DNA from: an uncultured Planctomycetia bacterium | GTDB lineage: Bacteria; Omnitrophota; Gorgyraeia; Tantalellales; Tantalellaceae | DNA length: 64,000 nucleotides | Assembly: GCA_964527765.1 (NCBI GenBank) | Contig: CAZGQR010000003.1 | Span: 75,366 to 139,365, forward strand | Direction of reading: 5' to 3' | Shown: piece after piece, positions 461 to 22,767 of the stretch | How positions within the stretch are numbered: the first letter of the stretch is position 1 | Layout of the letters: each line of letters opens with the position of its first letter | Notes under the pieces: generated by a model | The model's database searches: none | What the model was told of the DNA's origin: nothing | What the model saw: the letters and a program-made list of their open reading frames with translations, nothing else | Made by a program: the position numbers and the translations under genes

Positions 461-871
461 TTATACTTTTGACGGCGGGGTGTTTTTCAGGTATTCCGTG
501 GAGGCTTTCCTGAAAGAAAGGCTTTTGCGGTTGTATAGGTTGCATTCTCTCCGGAACTGCGTGATCTCTCCGATCTCTTTTTCAAGCGTTAGGGGAAAGT
601 CTTTCGGAACATTAAAGAACTTGGCGCCGATGTTATAGATATTCTTCCCGAGCTGCCTGACATAGACGATGATCGCCTTCAGGCGGAACATCTTGTTCTT
701 AAGGAAGACGTGGACATGTACCTTGTCATTTTTGCGCACTTCTTCCGTGGCAGTGAACGCAATGCCCCCTCCGCTTACATCTACCAGATCAAGGGGCCCG
801 TTCACGTGCTTTTCATCCCCTTCGATCGGGTAAGCGGCCATATAACGCTTCCATTTTCTTCTTTCTACCAT
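461..871 (-). CDS. Stand-alone PilZ-domain protein (c-di-GMP receptor type), 136 aa
   Basis: Start taken at internal ATG 871 (MVERRKWKRY...); the longer 263-aa ORF overlaps the upstream gene. Both PilZ signatures are present: RRKWKR (RxxxR) and DVSGGG (DxSxxG). Confidence 0.75.
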   Translation of the reverse strand: MVERRKWKRYMAAYPIEGDEKHVNGPLDLVDVSGGGIAFTATEEVRKNDKVHVHVFLKNKMFRLKAIIVYVRQLGKNIYNIGAKFFNVPKDFPLTLEKEIGEITQFRRECNLYNRKSLSFRKASTEYLKNTPPSKV

Positions 872-975: not shown

Positions 976-1608
976 TCAGCGGGCGGCATCGCCGTTTTCC
1001 GCTTCTTTGCCGACAAAAAGAAGAGGAAATATGATATCGCTTACGCAGCAGGGCACCCAAACGGCGAGAAATAAAAATAAAAAGACAGCCGCGTAGGAAA
1101 AGAAATTTAACGCTTTCCCTGCCGCCATGATAACATGAAAAAGCGACGCCCATGTGCTTACCAGAACATGTCCCGCGTGCGGAAACCGGGTCCTGGGCCA
1201 GAAATACGCAATGGTTATGCCGGCCACAGCGAGAGGGTTCACAAGCCACCATTCCTCGATAAAACCTATATGCGGTTCGGCGTGCGGCATCCCCAGGAGA
1301 AGTTCCCCGAGATAGGGTATGACCGAATCACTTAATGTCGCTATGCCGATCGATCCAACGTAGCCGACAATAAGCAGCGCCGCAATACTGCATCGTCCCC
1401 TGTCGGCCCTGCACTTATAATTTTTGTACATGGCGGCAGTAACCAGCGCGCTCAGGACAACGTGTATCGGATGAAGCGTGTAAAAAACATCGTAGGCGGT
1501 CCTGTAGGGCAGCTTGCAGAAAAACAGCATGATGACCACTCCTGTCAACGCGCCAAAAGCGGTAAACGGGGCATGCCTTCTCAGCTCGTACAGGATTGTG
1601 CTTTTCAT
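976..1608 (-). CDS. Polytopic membrane protein rich in conserved-looking His/Cys, function unknown (possible metal/ion transporter)
   Basis: 210 aa, about 6 hydrophobic segments, motifs HPIH, HAEPH, HAGH, CC. Starts 13 nt after the upstream GT gene, so likely the last gene of the operon. Confidence 0.5.
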   Translation of the reverse strand: MKSTILYELRRHAPFTAFGALTGVVIMLFFCKLPYRTAYDVFYTLHPIHVVLSALVTAAMYKNYKCRADRGRCSIAALLIVGYVGSIGIATLSDSVIPYLGELLLGMPHAEPHIGFIEEWWLVNPLAVAGITIAYFWPRTRFPHAGHVLVSTWASLFHVIMAAGKALNFFSYAAVFLFLFLAVWVPCCVSDIIFPLLFVGKEAENGDAAR

Positions 1609-1621
1609 GTGCGGAAAGCTC

Positions 1622-2662
1622 TTACTCGCTCAGTAATCTCTCAAACAGGTCTATATACCGCCTGGCTATTCTTTTCGGTGAATGCGCTTCCACGAATTTA
1701 TCCGCGTCTTCTATAAGGTGTTTCCGCTTCTTCTCGCTGCCAAGCAGGTCGATGAGTCTCTTGTTCAGGGCGGTAATGTCCCTGTAGTGGATCACTTCGC
1801 TTGTCCAGTCATGAAAAAAATCCGACTGACTGGGGACGAATATCGGACAGCCGGCGCCCATCGCCTGATAGACGGTCGACGAGACAACAGCGTGGAACCG
1901 GCTCTGGAATTTATGAAGGATGACCGCGTCCGAGGCAAAAAGGTAATCATCGAATTCTTTCGTCGACAAAGCATTGCATTTTCGCACTATCCGCCAATCG
2001 GTGGGGGTCAGCTCCTCAAGCATCTGGTAATCTTTGGCAACAAGATGCAAAAGGACCGCCTTTCTTTTGAGCTTCGGGGGCAGATCCCTGTAATAGGAAT
2101 GATACCCGCGCATGCCGAACGAATAGATGATCTTCTTGTCCAGCGGAAGTTTCAGCCTTTTTCTGGCCGCGGTTTTTTTGCACCTCCTCAGCTCCCAGGC
2201 GGGAAACGGGATATATTCCGCATCCGGGTAGATCTTCCGCAGGAAGTCCTGCCTGTGATCGAAATAAACGATCTTATCCCAGTCTATCTCATAAAACCAC
2301 GAATGGTCGCATATCCTGTTCTCGTGGACAACGTGCACCAGTTTTGCCTTCTTCCTCAGCACGGGGATTATATTGGACAATTTTTCCACCGGCAGCATTC
2401 CCAGGTCTTCGACAAGAAGCACGTCAAAATCGGTTTCCAGGAACGGGCGGGCATCCAGAGCATAAGTCCCTGTCCTTGTCCCGAAACATCTTTTCACGTA
2501 ACTTTCGTCCTTGGCGGTGATACCCTCCCCGTGATAATCATGCCTCGAAAAGGTGAACACCGTTACCTTGTGCCCCATCTCCCTGAAGGCCCTGCCTATG
2601 GGCTCCGCGTGCATCGCGACTCCGCTATTTGTATTCCATGCAGCCATGATTCCTATTTTCAT
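1622..2662 (-). CDS. GT-B fold glycosyltransferase-like protein (GT4/GT1-like), 346 aa
   Basis: Start at ATG 2662 (MKIGIMAAW) with GGAGG 7 nt upstream. N-terminal MKIxIxxxxxxxSGV and C-terminal ...YQAMGAGCPIFVP resemble GT-B nucleotide-sugar transferases. Family not firmly identified. Confidence 0.5.
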   Translation of the reverse strand: MKIGIMAAWNTNSGVAMHAEPIGRAFREMGHKVTVFTFSRHDYHGEGITAKDESYVKRCFGTRTGTYALDARPFLETDFDVLLVEDLGMLPVEKLSNIIPVLRKKAKLVHVVHENRICDHSWFYEIDWDKIVYFDHRQDFLRKIYPDAEYIPFPAWELRRCKKTAARKRLKLPLDKKIIYSFGMRGYHSYYRDLPPKLKRKAVLLHLVAKDYQMLEELTPTDWRIVRKCNALSTKEFDDYLFASDAVILHKFQSRFHAVVSSTVYQAMGAGCPIFVPSQSDFFHDWTSEVIHYRDITALNKRLIDLLGSEKKRKHLIEDADKFVEAHSPKRIARRYIDLFERLLSE

Positions 2663-2710
2663 TCCGTATCCTCCTTCTGGCAGAACGTTTCTGCAGTCGC
2701 CCAAATATTA

Positions 2711-3778
2711 TCATGTAAACGGAACTTTTGCAAGGCGGTCCTCTTTTAAGATGTCCGAAACCGTTCCCTGCCACTCCGTGTCCCCGTAACGTATCTTCCG
2801 GAAATGCCAGTATTCGGCCCCCCAGAGCAAGATGGCGTCAACTCCAAGCTCCCGGAATTCCCTGAAAAGTTCCGCCATCATCTCGGGCGCACTCGTCAAT
2901 ACCGCCCCTTCCCCTTTATGGACCAGCTGGCCGGGCTCCCAGGGTTCCGCTTGAAGCTCCGCGATCCAGGCCTTTTTTCCCTTACTTTGCGCGAGCGCCA
3001 GGACTTTTGAAAAATATCTCTCCCGCTCCTTCCGGCTGGTGCGGAAATATAGATCCGCGTTCCAGAACTCTTTTCCTACGACCGGATAGACATTAAGCCC
3101 CAGGATATCGCCTATGGCCAGGCATTCCCTGACGGGGTCATGCCGGCTAAGAAGGCGGTTGAGAAAGCGAAGGATCCTGTTGGGATATGTTGCCGTCGTC
3201 AAAAGGATCGGGCGCTTTCTCCCGTCGAGGCTCCTTACAAGCTCCACTTCCTGCTCTAAAAAAGCCCTGCCTATAAACCAGTATTGCCTCCCGGTGCGGT
3301 TCAGCGGCTCGTTCTCAACCTGCCACCAATGTATGATGGAATCGTCCTTATAGCGATCTACGACTTTTCTTATGAATTGAAGCGTGCGTTTTCGCAGATA
3401 TTCGTCTCTTGAGACATCCGTGCCGAAGGAAAGAGAAGTTCTTTTCAAGACCCAGTCGGGGATAAAATATTCGGGCCACCGGGGAGCCTTCATGCCTACC
3501 GTCAGCGCAACAGGGACCTTCTTTTTCGCGGCTTCATGTATCTGCCAGTCAAGAGCGGAAAAGTCATAGACATTTTCTTCTTTCTCTATTTCGTCCCAGT
3601 AGGCTCCCAGGCGAATAAGGTCGAACCCGGCCTCGAGTATGGAAAGATAGGTTTTTTCCCGGTCCATCCCCAGGTATTCGCTCTGGCGCGGACTGTAGGT
3701 CGTTCCTATTTGCACCGGTCCCGCATACAGCGCCGAGCACTGGAAAACAAATAATACCGCGAGGGCAAGCGCCTTCAT
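2711..3778 (-). CDS. Secreted clan GH-A (TIM-barrel) glycoside hydrolase, GH42/GH5-like
   Basis: Signal peptide MKALALAVLFVFQCSALYAG. Acid/base motif WQVENEP and candidate nucleophile strand WIAELQAEPW. N-terminal Y-x-P...AGFDLIRLG..W..IE..E..YDF pattern is typical of clan A. Confidence 0.65.
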   Translation of the reverse strand: MKALALAVLFVFQCSALYAGPVQIGTTYSPRQSEYLGMDREKTYLSILEAGFDLIRLGAYWDEIEKEENVYDFSALDWQIHEAAKKKVPVALTVGMKAPRWPEYFIPDWVLKRTSLSFGTDVSRDEYLRKRTLQFIRKVVDRYKDDSIIHWWQVENEPLNRTGRQYWFIGRAFLEQEVELVRSLDGRKRPILLTTATYPNRILRFLNRLLSRHDPVRECLAIGDILGLNVYPVVGKEFWNADLYFRTSRKERERYFSKVLALAQSKGKKAWIAELQAEPWEPGQLVHKGEGAVLTSAPEMMAELFREFRELGVDAILLWGAEYWHFRKIRYGDTEWQGTVSDILKEDRLAKVPFT

Positions 3779-3785
3779 AGACTTG

Positions 3786-5423
3786 TTATTTCCGTTTTTT
3801 GTCGGTGACCCAGAACGTCATATACCTGCCGAACATGAGCCGCGTCTGGGCATCCAGCGCAGGCAATGCGCTCAAAAAGATGATCGTCAGCGGGACCAGC
3901 AGCCACTGCAAGGCGAACCCTATCCTTTTAAAAATAGGATGTTTTTCTTTCTTTTCGGGCAGCAGCAGCAGGCTCAGTATGATGCTTGTGATCAGCGAGA
4001 GTGTCGCGAGGTGAAATATGGTTCCTGTGATGCGCGGCGCGCTGTAATAAAAGACGGAGTGCGAAAAATCCCTTCCGGCGAAAATAGCCGGCAGCCACCC
4101 GATGATCGTAAGCAGAAAAGCCCAGGTCGTCCAGGAAATATGGCCTTCGAACAATTTATACCCGCACTTTATCCTGCTCATGAGGGGTATGCCGCTCTTT
4201 TTCAAAAAGGCCCTCATCACTATGGGAAAATTTTCCACTCCCCAGGCCCATCGTCTTTTCTGCTTGTAGACATTGACGACCGTCTGCCACCATGTATCTG
4301 CGACCACCGCATCCATGGAAAGCGTGGTATACATCGGGACCACATGATATTTTCCGTCATAATGGACAAATGCTTTCCAGAATATAGCCGAGTCGTCCGA
4401 GATCATATCCACCGGCCAGTACCCTACTTCGACCAACGCTTTAAAACTCATGCTGTGGCTTGAAAACGTGACCAGCGTCTGGGGGTTGGTCGCCTCGATG
4501 AGCTGAAAAAAGGAAGACCCCGCCTCAAGGACCCTGGTGATCCCCGGCGCATCCCAGATATTATTGTTGTACACCGGTACGGGCTGAAAGCTTGCGCGGG
4601 TCCTCCACGGACATATCAAGAAATAATAAGTAAGGCTTGCGAAATACATGGGGCTCACCACTGTATCCGCGTCAAAACAGGATGAGATCACATTATCAAA
4701 ATGGATCTTTCGCTCCGCGAAATATTCCGCTGCTCTCTTCGCCGCAAAGGTCGTGTTGGCTCCCTTGGCCCGGGCCTCGCCGACAATACCGTCGGGGTGA
4801 ACGACTATCAGTATATCGAAAAAAGAGTCCCGGTAAACGTCCCTGATCTGTTCTGCCCCCTTTTTGACTTCCCCGCTCGCTCTTTCTTCCAGGGCCAGGA
4901 TCACCACGATCTGCTTCGGGGGAAATGTTCCTGCGGCAAGGCTTGCGATGCCCGGCTCGACGACTTCACGCGTCTCCTTGGCTACCGGGATAATGACCAG
5001 ATGATAAATATCCGCTGAAAGCGGCTGGTCGCCCCCGGCCCCTTTCAGGGATTCGACCTCCCTGCGATGGCATAACAGCGAGACCTTCTCCCTCGCATCC
5101 CCCGTTAAGGGCCGTTTCTTGAGCTGCCCAAGATATTCATCAAGCCGGTCCAGGCCGCGCACTCTTTCCATCCAGTCGGTCTTCTTCTCGACAGAAAGCC
5201 TGAGATAGGAAAGAATAAGGAAAAGGGTCATGTATAACAACTTTAAAAGCCAGTAAAAATAAAAAGCGATTATTATCACGGCGGCGGCGAGGGGATGCAC
5301 AAAAGCCAGGATGGCCAGCCCTATGATGATGGTCCAGCTCGTTGCGCCGGGGACGATCTCAAAAAAACGCTGAAGTGTTCTTTCCCGTCCGGTCAGCTTA
5401 TTGCCGGTGAAGTCGAACCTCAT
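3786..5423 (-). CDS. Integral-membrane processive family-2 glycosyltransferase (beta-glycan synthase-like)
   Basis: 545 aa with N- and C-terminal TM bundles. Motifs CFDADT (DxD), ISDDS (ED/TED-like) and QKRRWAWG (QxxRW). Stop/start overlap (ATGA) with the upstream PEGA gene. Confidence 0.8.
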   Translation of the reverse strand: MRFDFTGNKLTGRERTLQRFFEIVPGATSWTIIIGLAILAFVHPLAAAVIIIAFYFYWLLKLLYMTLFLILSYLRLSVEKKTDWMERVRGLDRLDEYLGQLKKRPLTGDAREKVSLLCHRREVESLKGAGGDQPLSADIYHLVIIPVAKETREVVEPGIASLAAGTFPPKQIVVILALEERASGEVKKGAEQIRDVYRDSFFDILIVVHPDGIVGEARAKGANTTFAAKRAAEYFAERKIHFDNVISSCFDADTVVSPMYFASLTYYFLICPWRTRASFQPVPVYNNNIWDAPGITRVLEAGSSFFQLIEATNPQTLVTFSSHSMSFKALVEVGYWPVDMISDDSAIFWKAFVHYDGKYHVVPMYTTLSMDAVVADTWWQTVVNVYKQKRRWAWGVENFPIVMRAFLKKSGIPLMSRIKCGYKLFEGHISWTTWAFLLTIIGWLPAIFAGRDFSHSVFYYSAPRITGTIFHLATLSLITSIILSLLLLPEKKEKHPIFKRIGFALQWLLVPLTIIFLSALPALDAQTRLMFGRYMTFWVTDKKRK

Positions 5424-6886
5424 GATCCTCCTGTTTGTTCGGTTTTATTTTCTTCCGTTGCTGCGGGAAAAGGCGTCGGGACCATGCCCTTGCTGGGCAC
5501 TATCTCGACCGAAAGAAGGTTCTCCGTCCCGGGTTCAAGAAAATACATTTTCCCCGTCTGTTCCGCATAATAGACCGCGCTTTTATCTTTCACATGAAAA
5601 AGATGATCCAGCGTGAACTCGCCATATTCCTCTATCTCTATCAGGAAAACGTCATTACCGTCCCGAAACAGTATGTGCGACCCCTCGTATACCCAGAAAC
5701 ACTGTTCGATGTCCTTGCCCTCCCTGTAGGCCCACGAAAGGGTAGGGCCTTTTTCGAACTGCACATCCTGTGTTTCCTCGGTCGAGAAGTCCAGTATCCC
5801 GATCCTGTCTTTCTGCCATACAAGCGCGCGCTCGAGTTTCGGATCGAATTCGACTCCCCTTACGCCTTTTTCGATAAACCGGTACGGGAGGCGGTTCGCC
5901 AGAAGCTTTCCGTCCTCACCCAGAAAAAGCATATAATCTTCGGAAAGAACCCTTACGTGAAAAAACCCCTTTTGTCCGAAGATAGAGGCGCCCAGCGCCT
6001 GATCGTCCATCAGCACTTTTTTGCTTTTTGTGTCATAGCTCATTTTCAAAAAAATATTATCACCGTGCAGAACGTATACTTCGCCGTTGAGCAGGCCGTA
6101 CCCCCGGACGTTCGGAACGCACCTTGGGTAGACCGCGCCGGAATCTACCTCCACCCGGCTCAGATAGTCTTCCTGAAAGGCAAAAAGAGTTTTTTCCTGC
6201 CCGGGCAGCCATTTGACCGCGCTGGGCACAACAGGGAAAAGCCCCGTAATATCTTCAACTGCATCCTTGTCTTCTCCGAGCTCTACCCATAGAAATCTCT
6301 CCCCGCCCCGGGAAGCAAGGCGCAAAATGACAACACAACTTTCCCTCACCGTAAAATATGACGCCAGTTCAGCGCCCGCAAAAGGAGAGTCTTTTTCAAA
6401 CAGCGCATGCGCTTTTTCGTTATTGTAATCGTATACCAGGATATCCCCCGCCGCCGGCCCGCCTGCAGCGAGAAAAAAGCCGCTTCCGGGAACGGGGAGC
6501 AGGTCCTGTATCCTATCGGGAAGAAGGGTGCTGGTTTTCCACTGAAGCGGCAGCAGCAGGATCTTGTCCAAAACCGTTGCTTTTTCAACTTCTACGGGGA
6601 CCGTCTGAGACCAGGGTTTATGATCATCCAGGGTCAGCTTGACGGGATAATCGCCCGGGACGAGCCCGCGGACCACAGTCGGGGTATTCTCCGCGTACTG
6701 ACTGTCCTTCAGGTAAATGGCGGCACCGGTCGGAGCGGTCGATAAATAGATCACCCCTGTTTGCACAACGCTCTCCTCCGCCCCGGGCCTGTAAATGTAC
6801 CCGAACGCATACAGAAGAATAAGCGGGCACAAGATTATGTATATGGCGGCAAAAATGTAAAAGAAGATCCTTCTTAAAAGCTGCAT
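5420..6886 (-). CDS. N-terminally membrane-anchored PEGA-domain protein with large uncharacterised ectodomain
   Basis: TM helix FFYIFAAIYIILCPLILLYAF, then a PEGA-like segment STAPTGAAIYL...NTPTVVRGLVPGDYPVKL. About 400 aa of beta-rich sequence follows. Translationally coupled to the GT2. Confidence 0.65.
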   Translation of the reverse strand: MQLLRRIFFYIFAAIYIILCPLILLYAFGYIYRPGAEESVVQTGVIYLSTAPTGAAIYLKDSQYAENTPTVVRGLVPGDYPVKLTLDDHKPWSQTVPVEVEKATVLDKILLLPLQWKTSTLLPDRIQDLLPVPGSGFFLAAGGPAAGDILVYDYNNEKAHALFEKDSPFAGAELASYFTVRESCVVILRLASRGGERFLWVELGEDKDAVEDITGLFPVVPSAVKWLPGQEKTLFAFQEDYLSRVEVDSGAVYPRCVPNVRGYGLLNGEVYVLHGDNIFLKMSYDTKSKKVLMDDQALGASIFGQKGFFHVRVLSEDYMLFLGEDGKLLANRLPYRFIEKGVRGVEFDPKLERALVWQKDRIGILDFSTEETQDVQFEKGPTLSWAYREGKDIEQCFWVYEGSHILFRDGNDVFLIEIEEYGEFTLDHLFHVKDKSAVYYAEQTGKMYFLEPGTENLLSVEIVPSKGMVPTPFPAATEENKTEQTGGS

Positions 6887-6895
6887 ATCTTCTCT

Positions 6896-8323
6896 CTACC
6901 TTTCCAGTCCTTCCCAGATAACTTCGAAACGCTTCTTAAGATCATCGGTGGAGAACGGCCAGACCGTGCGCCCGTAAAGAGCCTGGGTTACTTCCTTGTA
7001 GGAAAGCTTGTTCATCCTGAACTTAGGTATTTTATTGTCGATCTCAAGACAGTAGCGCATGAGCAGGAGCTGTTTCTGGACCATGTGGGGAAGCAAAAAG
7101 TGCTGCTGCACGGTCTCCCGGGCATGCTTGCTGAGAGTTTCCCGCAGCAGTTTATCTTCCAGGATAGACCTTATTGCCCGGAATATTTCGGCGCGCTCAT
7201 AAGGCTCGACCAGAAAACCGTTATGCCCGTTCACGACCTGCTTCTTTATCCCCCCGACCTTACTGCCTACCACGGGAGTCCCCTGCCACATCGCCTCAGA
7301 GACCACAAGACCGAACCCTTCCTTTGTGGAAACATGGACAAAGCAATCGGCGATCGTCAGAAGCGAGCCGATGATCTCGTCGTTATTTTCCACATTGAGC
7401 AAAAGGTGGATGTCCTCTTCTCCCTCGGCGGCTTTTTTCATCTCTTCGTACATCTTCATGCCCTCGGGGTCGTCGGTGGCGGAATTGCCGACCAGGATAA
7501 GGAGCGGGTGGGCCCCTTTTATGGGATTTTTTTTCAGAAGTTTAAACGCTTCTATGATAGCCCTCTGGTTCTTATGAATATCGTACCGTGATACCGCTGC
7601 CACTATCGGCCGTTCCGGATCTATATTATGCTTGTTGAACAATTGTTCCAGGGTCTTCAGGGCCTCCTTCCTGGAGCGGGGTTTATTCTTCGCCCGCAGG
7701 GGGTCGATCGAGGGGGTTATTTCGTAAGCGGGGATCTGTATGTTGTCCCTCATAAATTCCTTCGCCGTAAAGATAGCCCCTTCGTATTGGTTGATATAAG
7801 GAAGCAGAAAACGCCAGATCCTGCGGCTGGCGCTTGAAGTATCTATATGGCACCGCCAGAATATGTGGCCGTATACATTGCCGTTCATGATTATAGCGGC
7901 GGGCTGCGGGTCGTGGATAGTGACCATGTGCCCCACGACTTCTACCCCGCGGGTATTTTCATCGATCGTGTCAAGATAGGCGTGGAAGATCTCCCTGAGC
8001 GTGATGGTCTGGTCGACCCCCTGAAGCAGGTTGTGGAATTTCTTCGTCACCGTGAAAAATTCTTCGCTGCCCTCTATGACGAACCACCTTGCGTCGATGC
8101 CGAGCCCTCTCGCGAACGGTACCACGCTCTGGAGCATCTCCGCGACGCCGCCGCCGATAAAAGTGGAGTTTACGTTCGCCCATACTTTCTTCTCCAGGTC
8201 CCCGGCCAGGAACTTGATATTGTCCATCAATTCCTTCCCGACAAAAGGCTCATACAGATCGACATTAACGGGCTCAAGCGGAACATATTCGTTCCCGTAT
8301 TTTCTGCTCTTATCATCAAACAT
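6896..8323 (-). CDS. GT4 glycosyltransferase, TreT-like (trehalose glycosyltransferring synthase family)
   Basis: Motifs VNSTFIGGGVAEML, IDARWFVIEG..EFF.VTKKFHN.LQG, HDPQPAA, WRCHID, PSIDPL and EGFGLVVSEAMW match my recollection of archaeal/bacterial TreT. Overlaps the otsB stop by 8 nt. Confidence 0.6.
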   Translation of the reverse strand: MFDDKSRKYGNEYVPLEPVNVDLYEPFVGKELMDNIKFLAGDLEKKVWANVNSTFIGGGVAEMLQSVVPFARGLGIDARWFVIEGSEEFFTVTKKFHNLLQGVDQTITLREIFHAYLDTIDENTRGVEVVGHMVTIHDPQPAAIIMNGNVYGHIFWRCHIDTSSASRRIWRFLLPYINQYEGAIFTAKEFMRDNIQIPAYEITPSIDPLRAKNKPRSRKEALKTLEQLFNKHNIDPERPIVAAVSRYDIHKNQRAIIEAFKLLKKNPIKGAHPLLILVGNSATDDPEGMKMYEEMKKAAEGEEDIHLLLNVENNDEIIGSLLTIADCFVHVSTKEGFGLVVSEAMWQGTPVVGSKVGGIKKQVVNGHNGFLVEPYERAEIFRAIRSILEDKLLRETLSKHARETVQQHFLLPHMVQKQLLLMRYCLEIDNKIPKFRMNKLSYKEVTQALYGRTVWPFSTDDLKKRFEVIWEGLER

Positions 8324-9131
8324 GTCCTTCTAACCCCCTTTTCAGCGTAAAAAGCAACCCGAGGAATCTTCTTACTTCTCCCGTGTCGCTCAAATAATAA
8401 TCGGCAAAGCTGGACCGGCCGCCGCCCTTTCCTACTTTTATGGTATACCCGCGGCGCTTTAAAAGGCGGAACGCATCTTCATCCGTCCTGTCGTCGCCGA
8501 TATAGAATGGGACTATCCTGCCTTTTATTTGTTTCTGTTTTTCTCCAAGCAAATGCAGGGCTGTCTTCCCCTTGTCCCATTTTACCGGAGGCCGGATCTC
8601 CCACACCTTTTTGCCTTTCGTTATAACGACCCTTCCCCGGGCACTATACGGTCCCGCGATGCTCTTGAAGATGTTTTCGGCTTGTTTTACCCTGCGCTTA
8701 TCGACCATCCGGAAATGAACGCTCAAGGTCAAGGTCTTGTCCTCTATATAGATACCCCTGAAGGAACGGTACCTTTTTTTTAATTCTCTGCCTATCTTGC
8801 TGATCGTTCTCTTTGCCTTCAGGGCCTCCGGCACGACATGCCGCAGACCCGGGCCCCTGGCTTCCAGGCCGTGATTGCCGGCATAAACGATGCCTGAGAC
8901 GCCGACGCGCCTCCGGACATCCCGGAGCGCCCGGCCGCTTATGACCGCTACCGATATATTTTCCCGGGAAAGGAGTTTTTTCAATGCTTTCGCGGTGGCA
9001 CCGCTCAGTCTGACCTTTTTCGGGTGCCTCCTGATCAGGGTAAGAGTCCCGTCAAAATCAAGAAAAAGATAAAGATATTTATTCCTGACTTCATCCGCTA
9101 TTTCCGGCCACTTTTTAATCAAGTGTTCCAT
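8316..9131 (-). CDS. otsB: Trehalose-6-phosphate phosphatase
   Basis: HAD motifs LFLDFDGTLT and GDDRTDEDAF. 271 aa. 6 nt downstream of otsA. Confidence 0.9.
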   Translation of the reverse strand: MEHLIKKWPEIADEVRNKYLYLFLDFDGTLTLIRRHPKKVRLSGATAKALKKLLSRENISVAVISGRALRDVRRRVGVSGIVYAGNHGLEARGPGLRHVVPEALKAKRTISKIGRELKKRYRSFRGIYIEDKTLTLSVHFRMVDKRRVKQAENIFKSIAGPYSARGRVVITKGKKVWEIRPPVKWDKGKTALHLLGEKQKQIKGRIVPFYIGDDRTDEDAFRLLKRRGYTIKVGKGGGRSSFADYYLSDTGEVRRFLGLLFTLKRGLEGHV

Positions 9132-9137
9132 TCTCTT

Positions 9138-10622
9138 TTATTCTTCTCTGATCATGAAGGGCTTTTTTGCCTGCTCGAAATACCGCAGGCAGTTCTGAAG
9201 CCAGATCCCAATATTGTTGAATTTGATGTTTCTGCGCATCCTGCCCATCCTCCGCCTTCTTTCCTCCACCGGCATATGGAGAGCCTGATATATGGCATTG
9301 GCGATGTCTTCGATGCTGTACGGATTGACGGGAAGACAGTTCTTTATCTCGGCTATGGCCCCGGCGAACTTGGAAAGGACCAGAACGCCGTCATTGTCGG
9401 AATGGGCGGCAACGTATTCCTTGCACACAAGGTTCATCCCGTCCCTCAACGGGGTCACCAGGGCCACGTCCGACGCCAGATAAAGGGCTACCAGCTCCTC
9501 AAACGGGATCGTCCCGTAATTGTAATGGATGGGCGCCCACAGGCCTGTCGAGAACTTCCCGTTGACCCGCCCGATTATTTCATCGATCTCTTTCTTCAGC
9601 GTTTTGTAAGTCTCCACGTCTTCCCTGCTGGGGATCACCAGCTGATAATAAAAGAATTTTTCTGCCAGCTCGGGATGTTCGTTAAGAAGCTGCTCCAGGC
9701 CGAGCAGTCTTTCCTTTATGCCCTTGGAATAATCGATGCGGTCAATGCCGAGTATCAGTTTCGGGCACGCGGCCTGCTGAAGTATCTCCTCTTTTCTCGC
9801 GATCACTTCCGGCTTGCGCGATGTTCTGTCCAGCAGCTCGAAATCTATGCTTATGGGGTTGGCGAAAAAACGTGTTTTGATATTCTCCTCGATGGTTTTA
9901 TCCTTCGGGATGCTTTTTTCTTTAAGATAGACATCGACCGCTCCCAGGAAATTTTTCAAATACTGCCGGTGCTGAAAACCGACCGTATTGCAGCAAAGAA
10001 GGGACCTTAGTATCTGTCGCTGCCACGGCAAGATCGAAAAGATATCCATGTGCGGGAATGGTATGTGCAGGAAAAAGTGTATTTCCTGTTCCGGCCGCAG
10101 CTGCCTGAGGTAATAGGGCGCCAGGAACAGGTGGAAGTCCTGGATCCATACGATATCGTTTTCCGCGGCGACCCTGTCGATGCAGGCGGCAAAACGTTTA
10201 TTGACCGCAGCGTATGTTTCCCAGGCGGAATAATCAAGAAAGGATTTTTCGAAAAAATAATGAAAAAGCGCCCACAGGGTGCCGTTCGAAAAACGGTTAT
10301 AATATTCGTCCAGCTCGTTGTGGTTTATAGGCACGCAGCCGATGCGGTAGGATTTGCCCCGTTTCCGCCTGAGCTCCTCTTTGGATTCTACTTTCCCGAT
10401 GTCTATAAGTTTCAGTTTCTCTTTTTGCGGGCTTTCAGCGGGGTATCCGTCCCAGCCCAGCCATACCCCGTCGGCATCGAGCAGGATCGGCTCCATGGCG
10501 GTAATAAGCCCGCCCGCGGCTTTCCCCCAGGCAAAGTTGCCTTTTTCGTCCTTATACCTGTAAAAAGGAAGCCTGTTAGACACGACAACGAGGCCCCTGT
10601 CTTTGCCCTTAAAGCGGATCAT
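9138..10622 (-). CDS. otsA: Alpha,alpha-trehalose-phosphate synthase (GT20)
   Basis: VVVSNRLP, WLGWDG, VWIQDFHLFL, GIDRIDYSKGI, LVTPLRDGMNLV: classic OtsA blocks. 494 aa. Confidence 0.92.
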   Translation of the reverse strand: MIRFKGKDRGLVVVSNRLPFYRYKDEKGNFAWGKAAGGLITAMEPILLDADGVWLGWDGYPAESPQKEKLKLIDIGKVESKEELRRKRGKSYRIGCVPINHNELDEYYNRFSNGTLWALFHYFFEKSFLDYSAWETYAAVNKRFAACIDRVAAENDIVWIQDFHLFLAPYYLRQLRPEQEIHFFLHIPFPHMDIFSILPWQRQILRSLLCCNTVGFQHRQYLKNFLGAVDVYLKEKSIPKDKTIEENIKTRFFANPISIDFELLDRTSRKPEVIARKEEILQQAACPKLILGIDRIDYSKGIKERLLGLEQLLNEHPELAEKFFYYQLVIPSREDVETYKTLKKEIDEIIGRVNGKFSTGLWAPIHYNYGTIPFEELVALYLASDVALVTPLRDGMNLVCKEYVAAHSDNDGVLVLSKFAGAIAEIKNCLPVNPYSIEDIANAIYQALHMPVEERRRRMGRMRRNIKFNNIGIWLQNCLRYFEQAKKPFMIREE

Positions 10623-10676
10623 TTCCCCGTCCTTTTGCCTTCCGTATGAATATAGGTAGTATTATTATAATTTTTT

Positions 10677-10706
10677 ATTATAACAATTAAGAAAGCTTAT
10701 TTCCAA
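10677..10706 (-). promoter_or_regulatory. Candidate sigma70-type promoter of the otsA operon
   Basis: Minus strand TTGGAA-18 nt-TATAAT in the AT-rich 129-bp spacer, about 55 nt upstream of the otsA ATG. Confidence 0.4.
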
Positions 10707-10751
10707 TGATTTCCTGTTCGAGTGATGTCGCGCGGGAAAACGGATATCAGA

Positions 10752-11795
10752 TCATTTTCGGCTGTAAGTCTCGGTGAATTTAATGATCATGTCCATCATC
10801 TTTACCGCCTCGACGGGATACCGACCGGCCGCCGATTCTTCCGAAAGCATCACGAAATCAGTGCCGTCGAGTATTGCATTGGCGACATCGGTGGTCTCGG
10901 CGCGCGTGGGCCGGCTGTGCTCGGTCATGTGCTCCAGCATCTGTGTCGCGGTGATCACGAACTTTTTCTTCTGGTTGCATTTTTTTATGATCATCTTCTG
11001 TATGATGGGGATCTCATAGATGGGCACCGCTACCCCCATGTCTCCTCTGGCCACCATTATGCCGTCCGAGGCATCAATGATCTCATCTATGTTCCTTATG
11101 GCCTCCCTGCTTTCTATCTTGGCCACGACAAGGCATTGAAAAGATCTCTGTTTTATGTGCTTCCTGATCGTATCGATGTCTTCCTTGCTGCGGACAAAAG
11201 ATTGAGAGACATAATCCACCTTGTGTTTTATCCCGAAATCAAGATCCTTTTTGTCTTTCGGCGTGACTCCGGCAAAGGGAATATGGACACCCGGCATGTT
11301 AATGCCCTTGCGCTCCTTCAGGATGCCCCCTTCGATCACTTCCGCTTTCACTTTCTTTTCTGATGTGCCCTTTGCTTTAAGGATTATATTGCCGTCATCT
11401 ATGTATATGAGCTGTCCCGCTTTTATCCCCTTCAGGTTTCCTTTGTAATCAAAGGGGATCACTCGCTCCTCCCCCGTATCCGGCTCTGCCGTAAGCCAGA
11501 CCGTTGCTTTTTTATCGAGCGTTTTGGTCTTTTTGCCCTTGAACCTGCATACCCGGATGCGAAATCCTTCCAGGTCCTGCATGATGCGGATATGCCGCCT
11601 GTATTTTTTGTTGATCTTTCTTATCAGTTCTATCCGCCCGAGGTGCTCTTTATGGCTCCCGTGTGAAAAATTGAGCCGGGCGACATTCAGCCCGGCCATG
11701 ACCATCTTGCGCAGCACGGTATAGCTGCTGCTGGCCGGTCCTATTGTCGCGATGATCTTTGTTCTGGCAAGTCTTTCCATTTTTTTTCTGGCCAT
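10752..11795 (-). CDS. pyk: Pyruvate kinase, short form (A+B domains only, 347 aa)
   Basis: [28 protein letters not shown]. The protein ends right after the A-domain barrel, with no C-terminal (allosteric) domain. Confidence 0.85.
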
Positions 11796-11816: not shown

Positions 11817-12239
11817 TTATGAAATATCGTGCTTGCAGACCCGAAAGACCTGGATGTCGGGGGCATACCGCTTGAACATCTCAACGACATGCTCGTCGTC
11901 ATCGAAAAACATGCCCACATCGCTCTCCTTGCAGTACCTTACCTTCTGCCAGACGAATTTCTCATAGTCGCTGAGCCCGGCATGCGGGCAATCTTCCACC
12001 TCGCCTTCCTGTTTCGGAAGATGATATATTGTGTCATATGCGATGCTGCCCGCGCTTAGATCCCTCAGCGTTCTTTCCCTGTCCGCGTTCCGATCGGGCC
12101 TGGTAGTGACAACGTGCACTTCCCAGCCCTCTTTCCTGGCTGCATTTGAAAGAAGGCTGAAAAAATCGGGCTGTCTCATTATTGTGTCATCGACATCCAG
12201 CCCTATCTTTATTTTTTTCTTTTTTCCTTTTCGCGTCAT
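11817..12239 (-). CDS. Small HAD-superfamily hydrolase-like protein (nucleotidase-like)
   Basis: 140 aa. DxDxT motif in IGLDVDDTIM, distal FFDDD acidic motif. 21 nt upstream of pyk. Confidence 0.5.
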   Translation of the reverse strand: MTRKGKKKKIKIGLDVDDTIMRQPDFFSLLSNAARKEGWEVHVVTTRPDRNADRERTLRDLSAGSIAYDTIYHLPKQEGEVEDCPHAGLSDYEKFVWQKVRYCKESDVGMFFDDDEHVVEMFKRYAPDIQVFRVCKHDIS

Positions 12240-13251: not shown

Positions 13252-13329
13252 TGGCGGGGCGGACGGGGCTCGAACCCGCGACCTTCGGATCGACAGTCCG
13301 ACGTTCTAAACCAACTGAACTACCGCCCC
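13252..13329 (-). tRNA. tRNA-Asp (GTC)
   Basis: Cloverleaf read by eye: acceptor GGGGCGG/CCGCCCC, anticodon stem TCGGA/TCCGA, loop CTGTCGA, T arm GCGGG-TTCGAGC-CCCGT, encoded CCA. Confidence 0.92.
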
Positions 13330-13415
13330 TTTGAGCGTGTGTTTATTTATAACACAGAACACCTGGCGCGTCAATCGCTCCGTAACGCATCGGCCGAGAG
13401 TCCGAATTTCAATAG

Positions 13416-13493
13416 TGGTGGGCGATGTAGGATTCGAACCTACGACATCTACCTTGTAAGGGTAGCGCTCTAAACCAGCTGAGCTAATCGCCC
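13416..13493 (-). tRNA. tRNA-Val (TAC)
   Basis: Acceptor GGGCGAT/ATCGCCC, D arm GCTC..GAGC, anticodon stem CTACC/GGTAG, loop CTTACAA, T loop TTCGAAT, encoded CCA. Confidence 0.92.
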
Positions 13494-16224: not shown

Positions 16225-18687
16225 TTACTCTTCGCTCTTACCTTCTTCCGCCGCCTCTTCCTCTTCTTTCGCCACAACGCTCGCGACGGAGGTCAGCCTG
16301 TCCGGAGACTTCAGGCTTATGACCCTTACCCCCTGTGTCGCTCTTCCGACCTTGCTTATTCCTTTAACGGCCGCCCTGACGACCATTCCCTTCTTTGAGA
16401 TCAGCATGATCTCATTTTCCTCCCGGACGGCCTTGACCCCCACGACCGAACCGTTCTTTGCGACAACCTTGAGGTTAATTATCCCGCTGCCGCCTCTTGA
16501 CTGCCGGCGATAAGCATCAAACTCGGTTCGCTTGCCGAATCCTCCTTCGGTCACGGTCAGAAGCGCCCCGGAGGGGTCCACTTTCGTCATGCCGACGACC
16601 CTGTCCTTCTTCTTCAGCGATATGCCCTTGACCCCTTGCGCGCCGCGCCCCATGGGTCTTATATCTTTTTCAGAAAATCGTATCGCTTTTCCGTTCGCGG
16701 TCGCCAGGCAGATCTCATCCTTGCCGCCGGAAAGAACCGATTCTATAAGCTGGTCTCCCTTCCCGAGGGTAACGGCAATGATGCCCCCCTTTCGGGGGTT
16801 GCTGAAAGCGGTCAGCGGTGTTTTCTTTATTTTGCCCTGCTCCGTGGCCATAACAACAAACTCGCCTTCGGTGAATTCCCGGACAGGGACAACGGATGTT
16901 ATCTTCTCGTCGCCGGAGACCCCGATAAGGTTGACGATGGGCCGCCCCTTGGTCCTGCGCCCGGCCTGGGGGATCTCGTGCACCTTGAGCCAGTGCAGTT
17001 TGCCCGCGCTGGTAAAAATGAGCATGTAGTCATGCGTCGAGGCGACGAAAAGGTGTTCGACGAAATCCTCTTCCCTGGTCTCGGCCCCCGTCACGCCTTT
17101 TCCTCCGCGCCGCTGTTTCTTGTAAGCGCTCACGGGGAACCTCTTTATATATCCCGCATGGCTCAGGGTGATCACCATGTCTTCTTCCGCGATAAGGTCT
17201 TCTATGTCTATGTCCTCCGCGGCCGCGGTAACCTCCGTCCTGCGGGGGTCTCCGAATTTTTCCTTGACCTCCAACGACTCTTCCTTGATAATGCCCAGGA
17301 CTTTTTTCTCGCTTGCCAGTATCCCCTTCAGTTTTTCTATGGTCTTCAAAAGCTCCAGGTATTCGTTCTGTATCTTTTCTGTCTCAAGGTTGGTCAGTTG
17401 CTGCAGCCTCATGGCCAGTATCGCCAGCGCCTGTTTCTCGGAAAGGCTGAATTTTTTCATGAGCCCCACTTTTGCCGCTTCCGGATCTTTTGACTTCTTG
17501 ATGAGCTTTATGACTTCATCCAGGTTCTTGATGGCGATCTTCAGGCCCTCGAGGATATGGGCCCTTTCCTCTGCCCTGGCAAGATCGAACCTTGTCCGTT
17601 TTATGATCACATCTTTGCGGTGCTTGACAAAAAGCTCCAGCATCTCCTTCAGGTTAAGGATCCTGGGCTGCATATCGACTATGGCGAGCATTATGACCCC
17701 GAAGGTGTCCCGCATCTGGGTGTGTTTATAAAGCTGGTTCATGAGGACTTCCGAGTTATACCCGCGCCGGACATCTATCACCACTCTCATGCCGTCCCGG
17801 TCGGATTCGTCCCTGATATCCGCGATGCCTTCGACTTTCTTGTTTTTGACAAGGCTGGCGATCGAAGTAATAAGGCGCGTCTTGTTGACCTGATAGGGGA
17901 TCTCCGTGATCACTATGCTCTCTTTCCCCTGTTTTTTCTGCTCCACATGCACCTTCGCGTGCAGGGTGAGGGACCCTCTGCCTGTCCGGTAAGCCCTGCG
18001 GATCTCGTCCTTCCCGCAGATAAGCGCCCCCGTCGGAAAATCCGGGCCCTTGACGATCTTCGCCAGGTCATCGACCGAACAATCCGGATTATCTATGAGA
18101 TAGCATGTCGCGTCCACGATCTCCGTGAGATTGTGCGGAGGTATGTTCGTGGCCATCCCGACGGCGATCCCGCTGGAACCGTTGAGCAGGAGGTTGGGCA
18201 ATACCGCCGGAAGGACTTCCGGCTCTGAAAGCGACCCGTCAAAATTGGGCTGGAAACCCACCGTCTCTTTTTCTATGTCCTTGAGCATCCATTCGGTTAT
18301 CTGCTGCAGTCTTGCTTCTGTATACCGCATCGCAGCTGCCGGGTCTCCGTCAACGGACCCGAAATTGCCCTGACCGTCGATGAGGGGATACCTGAGAGAG
18401 AAGTCCTGCACCATGCGCACGAGCGTGTCATAAACCGCCGCGTCCCCGTGCGGGTGGTATTTTCCAAGAACCTCGCCGACGATCCTCGCGCTTTTTTTGA
18501 ACGACTTGCTGTACACAAGTCCCATATCCTTCATCGCGTAAAGTATGCGTCGATGAACGGGCTTAAGCCCGTCCCGCACATCCGGCAGTGCGCGTCCGAC
18601 GATCACGCTCATGGCGTAATTTATGTACGAGTCCTTCATCTCTTCTTCGATATAGACCGGAATGATCTTCTCGTTTCTTGTATACAT
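16225..18687 (-). CDS. gyrA: DNA gyrase subunit A
   Basis: [24 protein letters not shown], active-site region AAMRYTE, C-terminal beta-pinwheel repeats. 820 aa. Confidence 0.96.
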
Positions 18688-18726: not shown

Positions 18727-21663
<2,937 letters not shown>

Positions 21664-21667
<4 letters not shown>

Positions 21668-22767
21668 GCCGCCAGCTGCATAGGCAGCACCACGTAGGTG
21701 TATTCCTCTCCGTGCCGCACTACTCCCGGCTTGTTGGAATCGTTGACCTCAAAAACAATTTTCTCGTCCGACAGGTTTTTCAGGACATCTATAAGGTATC
21801 GGGGGTTAAACCCTATTTCTACGTCCGGCCCCCCTTTATATTCCACGTCTATCTCCTCTTTTGCCTCTCCGAGATAAGGGGTGTTTTTGGAAATGGTCAT
21901 TTTCTTTTTCTTTATATTAAGCTTGATCGCCATGGAGTCCTGGTCCGTGAAAATACTGGCTCTTCGCGCGGCGGATAAGAACTCTTCTCTGGGTATTTGT
22001 ACTTCCTTCGGCGACCTTTCGGGGATGACGTTCCTGTAGTTGGGGTATTCCCCTTCTATCAGCCTGGACAGGACGAAGCTGTTCTCAAAAGAGAACAGGA
22101 CCTGGTTGTCGCTGAACTTGATCTGCACTTCACCTTCATCCCGCAGCATCCTTTTTACTTCCTGAACTGTTTTGGTCGGGATAATGGCGTCCCTGTCCAC
22201 AAGCGTCTTTTTTGAAAGACGTTTCTTGACCAGCGCCAGCCTTCTGCCGTCTGTCGCCACCACGGATATTTGATCTCCCTTTACGCTGAGCAGTACGCCG
22301 TTCAACACAAACCGGGTGTCGTCTTTACTGATGGCGAAATCCGTGAGGTTCAGCATTTCCCTTAAGATGCTCTGTTTGATGGTAATGGAATCTTTGTCTT
22401 TGAAGGCCGGTAGTTGGGGAAATTCCTCTTGAGGCAGGCCGATTATCTTGAAAAGGGCTTTTCCGCTTTTTATTATCACAAAGTTGTTTTTTTTCATAGA
22501 AAGGTCCACGTCGCTTCCGTCCGGAAGGGCTTTGATGATGTCAAAGAATTTTCTTGCCGGTATCGTTGTCGCTCCCGCCTGTTGGGTTGTAATAGGTATC
22601 GTCGCGCATATCCCTATATCAAGGTCCGTGGCCGTTAATTTTAGATTGTTGCCTTCCACCTCAAGCAAGACATTGTTTAAAATAGGAAGGCTGCTTTTGG
22701 GGGATATTGCGTTTTGGACGATCTGGATACCTTCCATTAAGGTGTCTTTTGTTGTTTTTATTTCCAT
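21664..22767 (-). CDS. dnaN: DNA polymerase III beta sliding clamp
   Basis: 367 aa, three-domain clamp pattern (LKLTATDLDI..., VVATDGRRLA...). AGGAGG RBS. Lies downstream of dnaA. Confidence 0.95.

Follow-up and report, generated by a model that had tools for sequence, protein, structure and literature searches.

The stretch of DNA analysed here (hereafter the window; 64,000 nucleotides from an uncultured member of the Omnitrophota) carries otsA, otsB and a gene for a long-form TreT-family GT4 protein (treT) at the head of a gene string for a putative glycan synthase, and comparison with relatives indicates that these trehalose genes are an accessory graft on a conserved, origin-proximal glycan operon; among the three, treT is the one retained there. 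The analysis observed which families the genes belong to, how they are spaced, that the promoter is conserved and that the cassette is an accessory, movable unit. As an explanation we lean, modestly, towards co-regulated stress protection, with one transcript for a compatible solute (trehalose is an established one) and an envelope glycan, rather than chemical coupling of the two; a protectant sugar inside the cell and a glycan outside it are probably produced together. The stress role that we infer for the operon is drawn wholly from general knowledge. The component enzyme families are known, and the wiring of the operon and the TreT subfamily are new as objects of study.

Organization of the gene string

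The minus strand of the window encodes, in order, the GT20 trehalose-6-phosphate synthase homologue OtsA (10622..9138, 494 amino acids (aa)), the HAD-IIB trehalose-6-phosphate phosphatase OtsB (9131..8316, 271 aa), the long-form TreT-family GT4 (8323..6896, 475 aa), a membrane-anchored PEGA and β-propeller protein (6886..5420, 488 aa), a membrane-integrated, putatively processive GT2 synthase (5423..3786, 545 aa), a secreted clan GH-A glycoside hydrolase (GH; 3778..2711, 355 aa), a soluble GT-B-like glycosyltransferase (GT4b; 2704..1622, 360 aa, or 346 aa in public gene calls), a small polytopic membrane protein of no family (1608..976, 210 aa) and a stand-alone PilZ-domain protein (841..461, 126 aa), the last before a convergent gene. 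The genes from GT2 to PilZ, down to position 461, extend the string past the range of the original prediction, whose ORF coordinates and gaps of 6 (otsA/otsB), −8 (otsB/treT) and 9 nt (treT/PEGA) were reproduced; with the otsB start of the public gene calls (9122), the first gap would be 15 nt. PEGA and GT2 overlap by 4 nt at the GT2 start, and every junction from otsA to the 210-aa membrane-protein gene is an overlap or a gap of ≤13 nt (with GT4b at its public-call start, the gap before it is 48 nt). No terminator-type hairpin was found at these junctions, which are 6–13 nt or overlapping, while intragenic terminator-like matches numbered 21 vs 14.9 ± 4.2, an enrichment that is not clear. Transmembrane (TM) segments were absent from OtsA, OtsB and TreT in a TM scan, and the PEGA protein, GT2 and GH had TM or signal sequences.

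A sigma-70-type promoter-like element (10706-10677, minus strand; 10/12 match plus TG) precedes the ATG of otsA by 54 nt and consists of a −35 TTGGAA (10706-10701), an 18-nt spacer and an extended −10 TGtTATAAT (−10 at 10682-10677). It is the top-scoring promoter-like site in 13 kb; since the 12 sites found by the scan are at chance level (10.4 ± 3.7), we take the promoter as real because it is conserved across species. In three further Omnitrophota species the homologous operon likewise follows a TTGGAA-N17/18-TGnTATAAT element, which strengthens the earlier proposal of a promoter at this site. The gene that follows the element and a similar leader is PEGA in L087 (where trehalose genes are missing), treT in L091, and otsA in both L092 and the window. 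Further upstream lies a co-directional pyruvate kinase gene (11795..10752, minus strand, 347 aa; PF00224, barrel domain only); the 129 nt between it and otsA hold no clear terminator, and its transcription could run through into otsA. Such read-through, or internal starts, may occur and would speak against a single-unit view. Among relatives, pyruvate kinase stands 12 nt from the PEGA gene in L002 and ahead of the cluster in L004, L087, L090 and L092.

The PEGA/β-propeller protein is always paired with the GT2, for which family matches are weak (PF13632, PgaC). Across 27 homologues the GT2 motifs DAD251, SDD342 and QKRRW388 do not vary, TM segments occupy both the N- and C-terminal ends, and the top Foldseek matches are BcsA and hyaluronan synthases (from a model with a pLDDT of only 62), pointing to a processive enzyme of the BcsA/hyaluronan-synthase class. 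Homologues at ≥58% identity occur in >120 Omnitrophota clusters, as if the gene were a housekeeping-like one conserved across many lineages. The GH gene, which follows GT2 in most relatives, encodes a signal-like N-terminus and a TIM-barrel of clan GH-A with an NEP acid/base motif (ENEP at 156), and matches PF02449/PF00331/PF00150 as well as, weakly, GH42, GH5 and GH35 structures in the PDB. GT4b has weak PF13439/PF13524 matches and none among PDB sequences; it is retained in the clusters of L001-L004, L087 and L090-L092, right after treT in L001-L003, and homologues of the 210-aa membrane protein lie downstream of it in L087, L090 and L091. The PilZ protein (PF07238, 30.2 bits vs a cut-off of 22.5), whose homologues form the cluster end in L002, L003, L004 and L092, is a candidate c-di-GMP receptor. 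With synthase-dependent exopolysaccharide systems (BcsA-BcsB-BcsZ cellulose, PNAG PgaCD, hyaluronan synthase) the window shares a membrane GT2 with D, DxD, (S/T)DD and QxxRW motifs, the BcsA/hyaluronan synthase fold match, a periplasmic glycoside hydrolase and a PilZ protein. However, its PilZ is a separate small protein and not a C-terminal domain as in BcsA, the GT2 partner is the PEGA/β-propeller protein instead of BcsB, the hydrolase belongs to clan GH-A rather than GH8, and there is an extra GT-B; the origin-proximal location and the breadth of GT2 conservation in the Omnitrophota set it apart as well.

The trehalose proteins

The earlier family assignments of all three trehalose proteins were upheld by profile and PDB matches. 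OtsA, which would be a cytoplasmic trehalose-6-phosphate synthase, matched PF00982 (E 4e-129), and its best PDB matches were all trehalose-6-P synthases (E 1e-98). OtsB matched PF02358 (E 7e-43), scored above the TIGR00685 cut-off (156.9 vs 68 bits) and had T6P phosphatases as top PDB matches. As in the OtsA/OtsB (TPS/TPP) of E. coli and mycobacteria, the GT20 synthase and the HAD-IIB T6P phosphatase are adjacent and co-directional; the window differs in its otsA-otsB order, in the overlap of treT with otsB, in the location of the cassette inside a glycan-synthase operon and in an OtsA under the TIGR02400 equivalog cut-off (482.5 vs 564.85 bits).

The 475-aa protein groups with TreT, apart from the sucrose and other GT4 families. 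It matched PF21269 (TreT_GT1, E 3e-47) and PF00534, and in the PDB the TreTs of T. uzoniensis (3e-88, 41% identity) and P. horikoshii (1e-79, 39%), with BshA next among other GT4 proteins at 5e-15 and SPS, SuSy and GlgM at 1e-12 or weaker. Characterised TreTs (EC 2.4.1.245; T. litoralis, P. horikoshii 2x6q, T. uzoniensis 6zj4) have the same TreT_GT1 + Glycos_transf_1 architecture, are 39–41% identical to it over ~390 residues, and share the motifs NST..GGGVAE, FHN (acceptor His), HDPQP, WRCHID, SRxD..K, DDPEG and EGFGLxVxE. All hallmark motifs, and the His of the acceptor pocket (H97, equivalent to H92 of PhTreT), are among the 63 positions common to the long-form and canonical clades, and the predicted reaction is NDP-glucose + glucose <-> trehalose + NDP. 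Unlike known TreTs, the protein is of a long form (~475 aa) with a conserved C-terminal tail of ~50 aa that the archaeal TreTs lack, scores 303 against an NCBIfam TreT equivalog cut-off of 775, and has 19 clade-specific residues, several of which adjoin the donor-binding R-x4-K and E-x7-E motifs (H250/N252/Q253 next to R246/K251; H330 next to E335). Known TreTs come from hyperthermophiles, whereas the long-form clade comes from mesophilic uncultured bacteria, and it separates in the tree from the canonical, characterised archaeal TreTs; to our knowledge it has no characterised member. It can also coexist with a canonical TreT, as in L006, where a 404-aa canonical protein and a long-form one are encoded within one operon or gene string. 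Because of this separation, the 19 specific residues and the L006 pair, the long-form activity may differ from that of TreT; for the same separation and co-occurrence, the simple redundancy of two trehalose routes originally proposed is not assured.

Linkage among relatives

Nine dereplicated Omnitrophota groups link trehalose genes to the glycan module, and four different gene orders occur among them; together with the tight spacing and the conserved promoter and leader, this bears out the earlier view that the two are fused in one operon. The expected recurrence in relatives was found, although restricted: the linked genomes form a single clade of the TreT tree, and part of the recurrence is therefore shared ancestry. 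The cassette is an accessory graft, because one homologous locus exists in three states, with no trehalose gene (L087), with treT only (L091) and with otsA-otsB-treT (window), all within a gyrA-175/177aa-glmS neighbourhood (plus gyrB in the window and L091). The sole difference between L090 and L092 is the absence or presence of otsAB, respectively. In two species (L090, L091) treT stands alone at the operon head, which hints at a tie between TreT and the synthase more specific than general co-regulation. In the window, L092 and L096 the cassette comes first; in L004 it also comes first, accompanied by two extra genes, and in L001-L003 it lies between GH and GT4b, where some other relatives have a DHH gene, either alone or preceded by an MFS gene.

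The glycan module is widespread without trehalose genes (for example L087-L089), and the cassette also occurs without the module (L084, where it sits between corA and a YjeF_N gene, L005 and others), which argues against obligate chemical dependence. Trehalose as an obligate primer of the polymer was ruled out on these grounds. The original statement that all the enzymes draw on NDP-glucose was overstated, given that clusters of relatives hold NDP-sugar epimerase/dehydratase genes. OtsAB beside TreT, which had been called unusual, is found in 16 of the 31 dereplicated Omnitrophota TreT loci, with otsA-otsB directly upstream of treT, and the same TreT clade lies within trehalose clusters of Bacteroidales (TPSP, T6PP, GH65 phosphorylase). 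In Binatia, the clade is flanked by the NDP-sugar genes DUF4301 and rmlB-rmlA-rmlC. The long-form gene is often solitary, with neither otsAB nor the glycan module.

Explanations for the linkage

The explanation by co-regulated stress protection starts from the position of the cassette, which lies after the promoter and leader that belong to the glycan operon and before that operon's first gene; one transcript would therefore span both modules. OtsA would convert NDP-glucose and glucose-6-P to trehalose-6-P, which OtsB would dephosphorylate to trehalose, while the TreT-family enzyme would form trehalose from NDP-glucose and free glucose; the GT2 would polymerise and export a β-linked glycan handled by its periplasmic partners. 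Parallel TPS/TPP and TreT routes within one organism are described for T. tenax (PMC3634074), S. acidocaldarius (PMC7688234) and Rubrobacter (PMC4148983), and trehalose synthesis was earlier inferred from Omnitrophota MAGs (PMC8542988). The same signal would then raise the intracellular solute and the extracellular or envelope glycan under osmotic, desiccation or cold stress.

That the adjacency is meaningless, the cassette having landed and moved in a variable chromosomal spot where it is self-expressed or merely tolerated, is very unlikely. The confinement to one TreT clade, the close relatives with the cassette elsewhere (L084) or absent at the locus (L087) and the variable GH/GT4b junction would fit, but the linkage has outlasted at least three different rearrangements, the scan of the treT-PEGA interval found no separate promoter-like site, and, since the cassette follows the conserved promoter of the operon and its junctions are ≤9 nt, co-transcription would be unavoidable.

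Sucrose synthase feeds cellulose and polysaccharide synthesis in plants and cyanobacteria, alongside SPS/SPP. By functional analogy only, the window likewise has a putatively reversible GT4 disaccharide synthase next to a processive GT2 and an irreversible phosphate-dependent second route (OtsA/OtsB in place of SPS/SPP), with trehalose (predicted) instead of sucrose. TreT might thus run in reverse (trehalose + NDP -> NDP-glucose + glucose), feeding the GT2 and recycling its NDP from a trehalose pool supplied by OtsAB or an MFS sugar importer, although we consider this doubtful. It would suit the finding that treT directly precedes the PEGA-GT2 pair in six of the nine linked groups and is retained without otsAB, as well as the MFS sugar-transporter gene within the clusters of L090 and L092, the NDP-sugar neighbours in Binatia and the reversibility of T. 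litoralis TreT (PMC1769515). However, the TreT of T. tenax works in one direction only (PMC3634074), co-transcription of OtsAB with a TreT that cleaves trehalose would create a futile cycle (net G6P -> glucose + Pi), the epimerase/dehydratase genes suggest polymer sugars other than glucose, TreT is missing from the vicinity of most PEGA-GT2 loci, and treT does not adjoin GT2 in L001-L003.

It is also improbable that the 475-aa protein has a role in vivo other than trehalose synthesis, either using another acceptor in the glycan pathway (a sugar phosphate, a different monosaccharide or a glycan primer) or acting on OtsA/OtsB as their partner or activator. Such a role would agree with its distance from characterised TreTs, the sub-threshold equivalog score, the specific residues and tail, the canonical TreT in L006, the acceptor promiscuity of TreTs (PMC4490520) and a distant TreT homologue of S. 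acidocaldarius that is a GT4 T6P synthase (PMC7688234). Against it stand the 63 shared positions and the embedding of the clade in trehalose clusters of two phyla, and its frequent solitary occurrence disfavours an obligate partner. In favour of such a role, the 8-nt otsB/treT overlap, which is kept in L001, L002, L007 and L011, suggests coupled production, and a precedent exists in the tpsp-gt-msc operon of T. tenax (PMC3634074), where GT20 and T6PP functions are, as in the window, encoded beside a GT4 that is co-transcribed with and activates them, and where a separate TreT provides both routes in one organism. There, however, the GT4 is PimA-like (387 aa) and activates a fused TPSP, whereas that of the window is TreT-like, and the T. 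tenax operon has a mechanosensitive channel as its partner gene where the window has a putative polymer synthase.

Gene string and promoter

The trehalose and glycan genes form a tight string on the minus strand (window 461-10706), in sequence that derives from Candidatus Omnitrophota. The string consists of the trehalose cassette, i.e., otsA (GT20, 10622..9138), otsB (trehalose-6-phosphate (T6P) phosphatase, 9131..8316) and a gene for a TreT-family GT4 (treT, 8323..6896), followed by the glycan module, i.e., genes for a PEGA-domain protein (6886..5420), a GT2 glycosyltransferase (5423..3786), a glycoside hydrolase (GH, 3778..2711), a GT-B-like protein (GT4b, 2704..1622), a 210-aa membrane protein (1608..976) and, 134 nt past the latter, a 126-aa PilZ protein (841..461), all on the minus strand. 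The junctions from otsA to the 210-aa membrane gene measure 6, −8, 9, −4, 7, 6 (or 48) and 13 nt, the first three exactly as given in the original prediction, and none of them contains a terminator-like site. Cassette and module thus have the make-up of a single operon (co-directional genes, short or overlapping junctions and no terminator between), and several samples carry the same arrangement.

The promoter-like site previously noted ahead of otsA is the best match within 13 kb; the number of such matches overall is at chance level, and the scan count was not used as evidence. Instead, we compared homologous loci from other genomes and metagenomes (L-numbers below). An element composed of TTGGAA or TTGAAA, 16-18 nt and TGnTATAAT, together with a similar purine-rich leader, lies before the PEGA gene in L087, before treT in L091 and before otsA in L092 and the window, so the candidate promoter is backed by the same −35 and extended −10 in three relatives. 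Since this element heads the operon whether its first gene is PEGA, treT or otsA, the trehalose genes appear to lie behind the promoter that belongs to the glycan operon and ahead of that operon's first gene. With tight junctions and a promoter that is conserved in relatives, the proposed transcriptional fusion of the trehalose genes to the glycan operon stands as a sequence-based prediction.

The comparison defines a natural series at one locus behind one conserved promoter. L087, L091 and the window share a gyrA-175/177aa-glmS neighborhood (for the window and L091 it extends to an upstream gyrB; the L087 locus starts inside gyrA). The position just ahead of the PEGA gene is free of trehalose genes in L087, holds treT only in L091 and holds otsA-otsB-treT in the window. 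L090 and L092 have another upstream context (MamF-like, 77-aa ORF), and their sole difference is the presence of otsAB. A search for otsA or otsB remnants in L090 and L091, the loci with treT only, gave no match among ORFs of at least 60 aa. The promoter-like element described above was absent from the 200 nt next to the first gene in L096, L004 and L090, and in L002 the PEGA gene starts only 12 nt after pyk, which suggests that transcription from further upstream also occurs. A search of the whole window against Rfam placed no riboswitch or known RNA in the otsA leader at the gathering threshold.

The trehalose enzymes and the glycan module

OtsA is a full-length GT20 protein (PF00982, 3-472 of 473 profile positions, E 4e-129), and every one of its leading PDB matches, as far as 4e-54, is named as a T6P synthase. 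It scores under the curated equivalog cut-off of TIGR02400 (482.5 vs. 564.85), and lower again against the glucosylglycerol-phosphate synthase model (373.8 vs. a cut-off of 569). OtsB lies above the curated T6P-phosphatase equivalog cut-off (TIGR00685, 156.9 vs. 68.05 bits), and its PDB matches are T6P phosphatases (T6PPs).

The 475-aa TreT-like protein carries the TreT-specific N-terminal domain (PF21269, E 3e-47, 1-143 of 144 profile positions) and a C-terminal GT1-type domain (PF00534, E 2e-36), and is 41% and 39% identical to the TreTs of T. uzoniensis and P. horikoshii, respectively. The possibility that it belongs with a GT4 family unrelated to trehalose is not borne out, since solved TreTs (6zj4, 3e-88; 2x6q, 1e-79) are far ahead of the next family, BshA (5e-15), with SPS, SuSy and GlgM at 1e-12 or weaker. 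The protein does not pass the TreT_Thcocales equivalog NF041139 (303.1 bits vs. a cut-off of 775), as expected for a distant lineage, given that this model was built for Thermococcales. At the residue level, for which substrate contacts were taken from one review (PMC4490520), R-x4-K (R246/K251) and E-x7-E (E335/E343) are kept, and H97, the equivalent of the acceptor-pocket histidine His92 of PhTreT (PMC4490520), is conserved.

In a rough distance tree (neighbor-joining, midpoint-rooted without an outgroup, 110 sequences), the window protein was placed with 105 bacterial long-form sequences, outside the four-member canonical clade, in which the characterized TuTreT and PhTreT group with a 404-aa Omnitrophota paralogue from L006 and with L114. 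This long-form clade (106 sequences) includes Omnitrophota, Binatia, Bacteroidales, Thermodesulfobacteriota and others. To our knowledge, none of its members has been characterized. Across both clades 63 positions are conserved (106 long-form plus four canonical sequences), and a further 19 are specific to the long form, including H250/N252/Q253 beside R246/K251 and H330 beside E335; the long-form C-terminal tail has a median of 39 residues. A survey from 2006 listed TreT in Archaea and Thermotoga maritima only (PMC1769515), whereas the comparison now shows that mesophilic bacteria hold a large clade of long-form TreTs.

The neighborhood of long-form TreT is trehalose-themed in two phyla, with otsAB in Omnitrophota and T6PP/GH65 genes in Bacteroidales. 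Within the L025-L080 set, the Bacteroidales gene comes after genes for a T6PP and a beta-PGM-GH65 fusion, a GT20-T6PP fusion being encoded close by, and the Binatia gene lies between DUF4301 upstream and rmlB-rmlA-rmlC downstream (Binatia/Bacteroidales examples: L037 8110-9840, L038 11361-12527 and L064 5346-9781). In L006 (2831-4045 and 6405-7829), a canonical 404-aa TreT (424 bits to T. uzoniensis TreT) sits directly upstream of otsA-otsB and a long-form TreT follows, so that two TreT paralogues flank OtsAB. Because this locus carries both forms, the long form is not necessarily a simple duplicate of canonical TreT.

In the glycan module, GT2 carries the motifs DAD251, SDD342 and QKRRW388, none of which varies among 27 homologues, and has transmembrane segments at both ends (23-70 and 465-519), as in the TM-flanked GT-A proteins of the processive BcsA/hyaluronan synthase class. 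BcsA and hyaluronan synthases took all of the top ten places in Foldseek (E from 4e-5 to 1e-3), at TM-scores of only ~0.3 and from a poor model (pLDDT 61.8), so that this fold search is no more than indicative. On the strength of motifs and terminal segments, GT2 is predicted to be a processive, membrane-integrated synthase. PDB sequence searches with GT2, the PEGA protein and GT4b returned nothing useful. A BcsB-like fold for the membrane-anchored PEGA protein was rejected, as its fold is a beta-propeller. A signal peptide and the clan GH-A motif NEP are present in the hydrolase. In BcsA the PilZ domain is fused to the synthase, whereas a domain search found none in the 545-aa GT2; here a separate 126-aa PilZ protein, a candidate for c-di-GMP binding, terminates the cluster, and PilZ proteins are also the last members in L002, L003, L004 and L092.

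Relatives carry extra genes near the module, coding for a DHH/DHHA1 phosphoesterase, an MFS sugar transporter, NDP-sugar epimerases/dehydratases and a PMT_2/TPR protein. The phosphoesterase gene lies between the GH and GT4b genes (L087 11767-12717, L090 17273-18193, L091 15603-16556 and L092 15066-16031), and the window lacks it at that position; together with PilZ, it is a hint that cyclic dinucleotides may control the glycan module. That all enzymes of the string draw on NDP-glucose, as originally proposed, could not be established, and the clusters of relatives add NDP-sugar epimerase/dehydratase genes. A further idea, that glmS is a constant part of the cluster and the polymer thus perhaps one of GlcNAc, was rejected: the 612-631-aa genes after PilZ in L002-L004 gave no GlmS match and are PMT_2/TPR proteins (Pfam was run on those of L002 and L003).

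Linkage across relatives and its readings

To assess synteny, we retrieved 80 species-representative and 27 metagenomic loci as well as targeted contigs, and searched their ORFs with the window proteins. Four linked arrangements were observed: the cassette directly ahead of PEGA-GT2-GH (window, L092 and L096), treT alone in that place without otsAB (L090 and L091), the cassette between GH and GT4b (PEGA-GT2-GH-[otsA otsB treT]-GT4b, L001-L003), and the cassette separated from PEGA-GT2-GH-GT4b by h140 and DUF2490 genes (L004/L097). Unlinked states are also common, namely the otsA-otsB-treT triple among unrelated genes (L084/L017, L005, L007, L011, L013 and others), treT alone (L085, L086, L008-L010 and others) and PEGA-GT2(-GH) without a trehalose gene (L087-L089). 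PilZ directly after treT was rejected as a general pattern, being seen in L085 and L010 only.

Of the 31 groups left when loci were dereplicated at 97% TreT identity, 16 have otsA-otsB immediately ahead of treT; the adjacency of OtsAB and TreT, previously regarded as unusual, is therefore normal for the phylum. The GT2 module is within the flank in nine of 21 groups, a fraction biased upward since three of the nine (L090-L092) were selected on purpose, their TreT and GT2 hits coming from contigs of equal length, and the unbiased species-representative set has four linked loci among 24 of Omnitrophota type (L001-L024), many of them short-flanked. The link between trehalose genes and synthase is real, yet restricted to one clade of the TreT tree. 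In L096 (11446-12909 vs. 10001-11428), TreT is 81% identical to that of the window, in contrast to ~42% for the adjacent PEGA protein (429 of 1120 bits), with GT2 at ~69% (858 of 1245 bits). This points either to a far slower evolution of the trehalose genes than of the PEGA protein or to an exchange of the trehalose genes between lineages.

The best-supported reading is one of co-transcribed stress protection, in which an operon for a synthase-dependent envelope or matrix glycan would have gained a cytoplasmic module for trehalose synthesis at the 5′ end, the two being transcribed as one. OtsA and OtsB would make trehalose from G6P, the TreT-family enzyme would make it from free glucose, and the shared control would combine solute and glycan into one stress response. 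Parallel TPS/TPP and TreT routes within one organism are on record (PMC3634074, PMC7688234, PMC4148983), and a study of Omnitrophota MAGs has inferred that they make trehalose (PMC8542988). A role for trehalose as obligate primer of the polymer is unlikely, because the PEGA-GT2 pair is far commoner than the linkage and the cassette also occurs elsewhere. GT2 itself is conserved over many Omnitrophota lineages (more than 120 clusters at a minimum of 58% identity).

It is also conceivable, albeit improbable, that long-form TreT, from its place at the operon head, acts as the trehalose counterpart of sucrose synthase, converting trehalose and the NDP released by GT2 to NDP-glucose, with trehalose (made by OtsAB or imported) as a glucosyl reservoir for an Omnitrophota envelope beta-glucan. 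What keeps such a supply in consideration is that treT is the cassette member that stays with the synthase and that TreT can be reversible (PMC1769515). The other live alternative is that the TreT-like protein uses a divergent acceptor, or that it serves as a partner protein in the way of the T. tenax glycosyltransferase (PMC3634074). If TreT does feed the synthase, this would be a new nucleotide-sugar supply route for a bacterial polysaccharide synthase; if not, the locus amounts to an ordinary, albeit neat, example of stress genes under joint regulation. The gene families themselves are known. Their combination at this locus is uncharacterized, as are the long-form TreT clade and the PEGA/propeller-GT2 system. 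Omnitrophota are widespread, uncultured and largely uncharacterized, and the locus offers a concrete, testable link between the making of a compatible solute and a glycan system of the envelope or matrix.

Genomic surroundings

The window includes a replication-origin region (16225-29141), with dnaA (24341..22932), dnaN (22767..21664), gyrB (21282..18727) and gyrA (18687..16225) on the minus strand, yidC (25342-26964), parA (27497-28315) and parB (28269-29141) on the plus strand, and a flip in the sign of the GC skew near 23-25 kb. Located 12-22 kb from the origin, the operon is oriented away from it. The comparison defines an uncharacterized PEGA/beta-propeller and GT2 synthase pair beside the replication origin. 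Three tRNA genes are on the minus strand (13252-13493 and 16098-16175): tRNA-Asp and tRNA-Val lie between glmS and a string of small genes upstream of pyk, and tRNA-Glu adjoins gyrA.

The pyruvate kinase (10752-11795, −) has only 347 aa, comprising the barrel domain without the C-terminal domain, and a gene of this short type also adjoins the PEGA-GT2 cluster in L002, L004, L087, L090 and L092. A neighboring 140-aa protein (11817-12239, −) has no Pfam match and a HAD-like DVDDT motif, and could be a small sugar-phosphate phosphatase; its homologue directly follows treT in L004/L097 (L004 11450-11848). The window encodes V/A-type ATPase genes (A, B and I-like subunits, 36960-42392, +) rather than an F-type ATP synthase. 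Finally, a 6S RNA (56252-56409, +; RF00013, 51.8 bits vs. a gathering score of 46.4) extends into the longest ORF for an MgsA-type AAA+ ATPase (56288-57790) at its start, so the ATPase gene probably begins further downstream.
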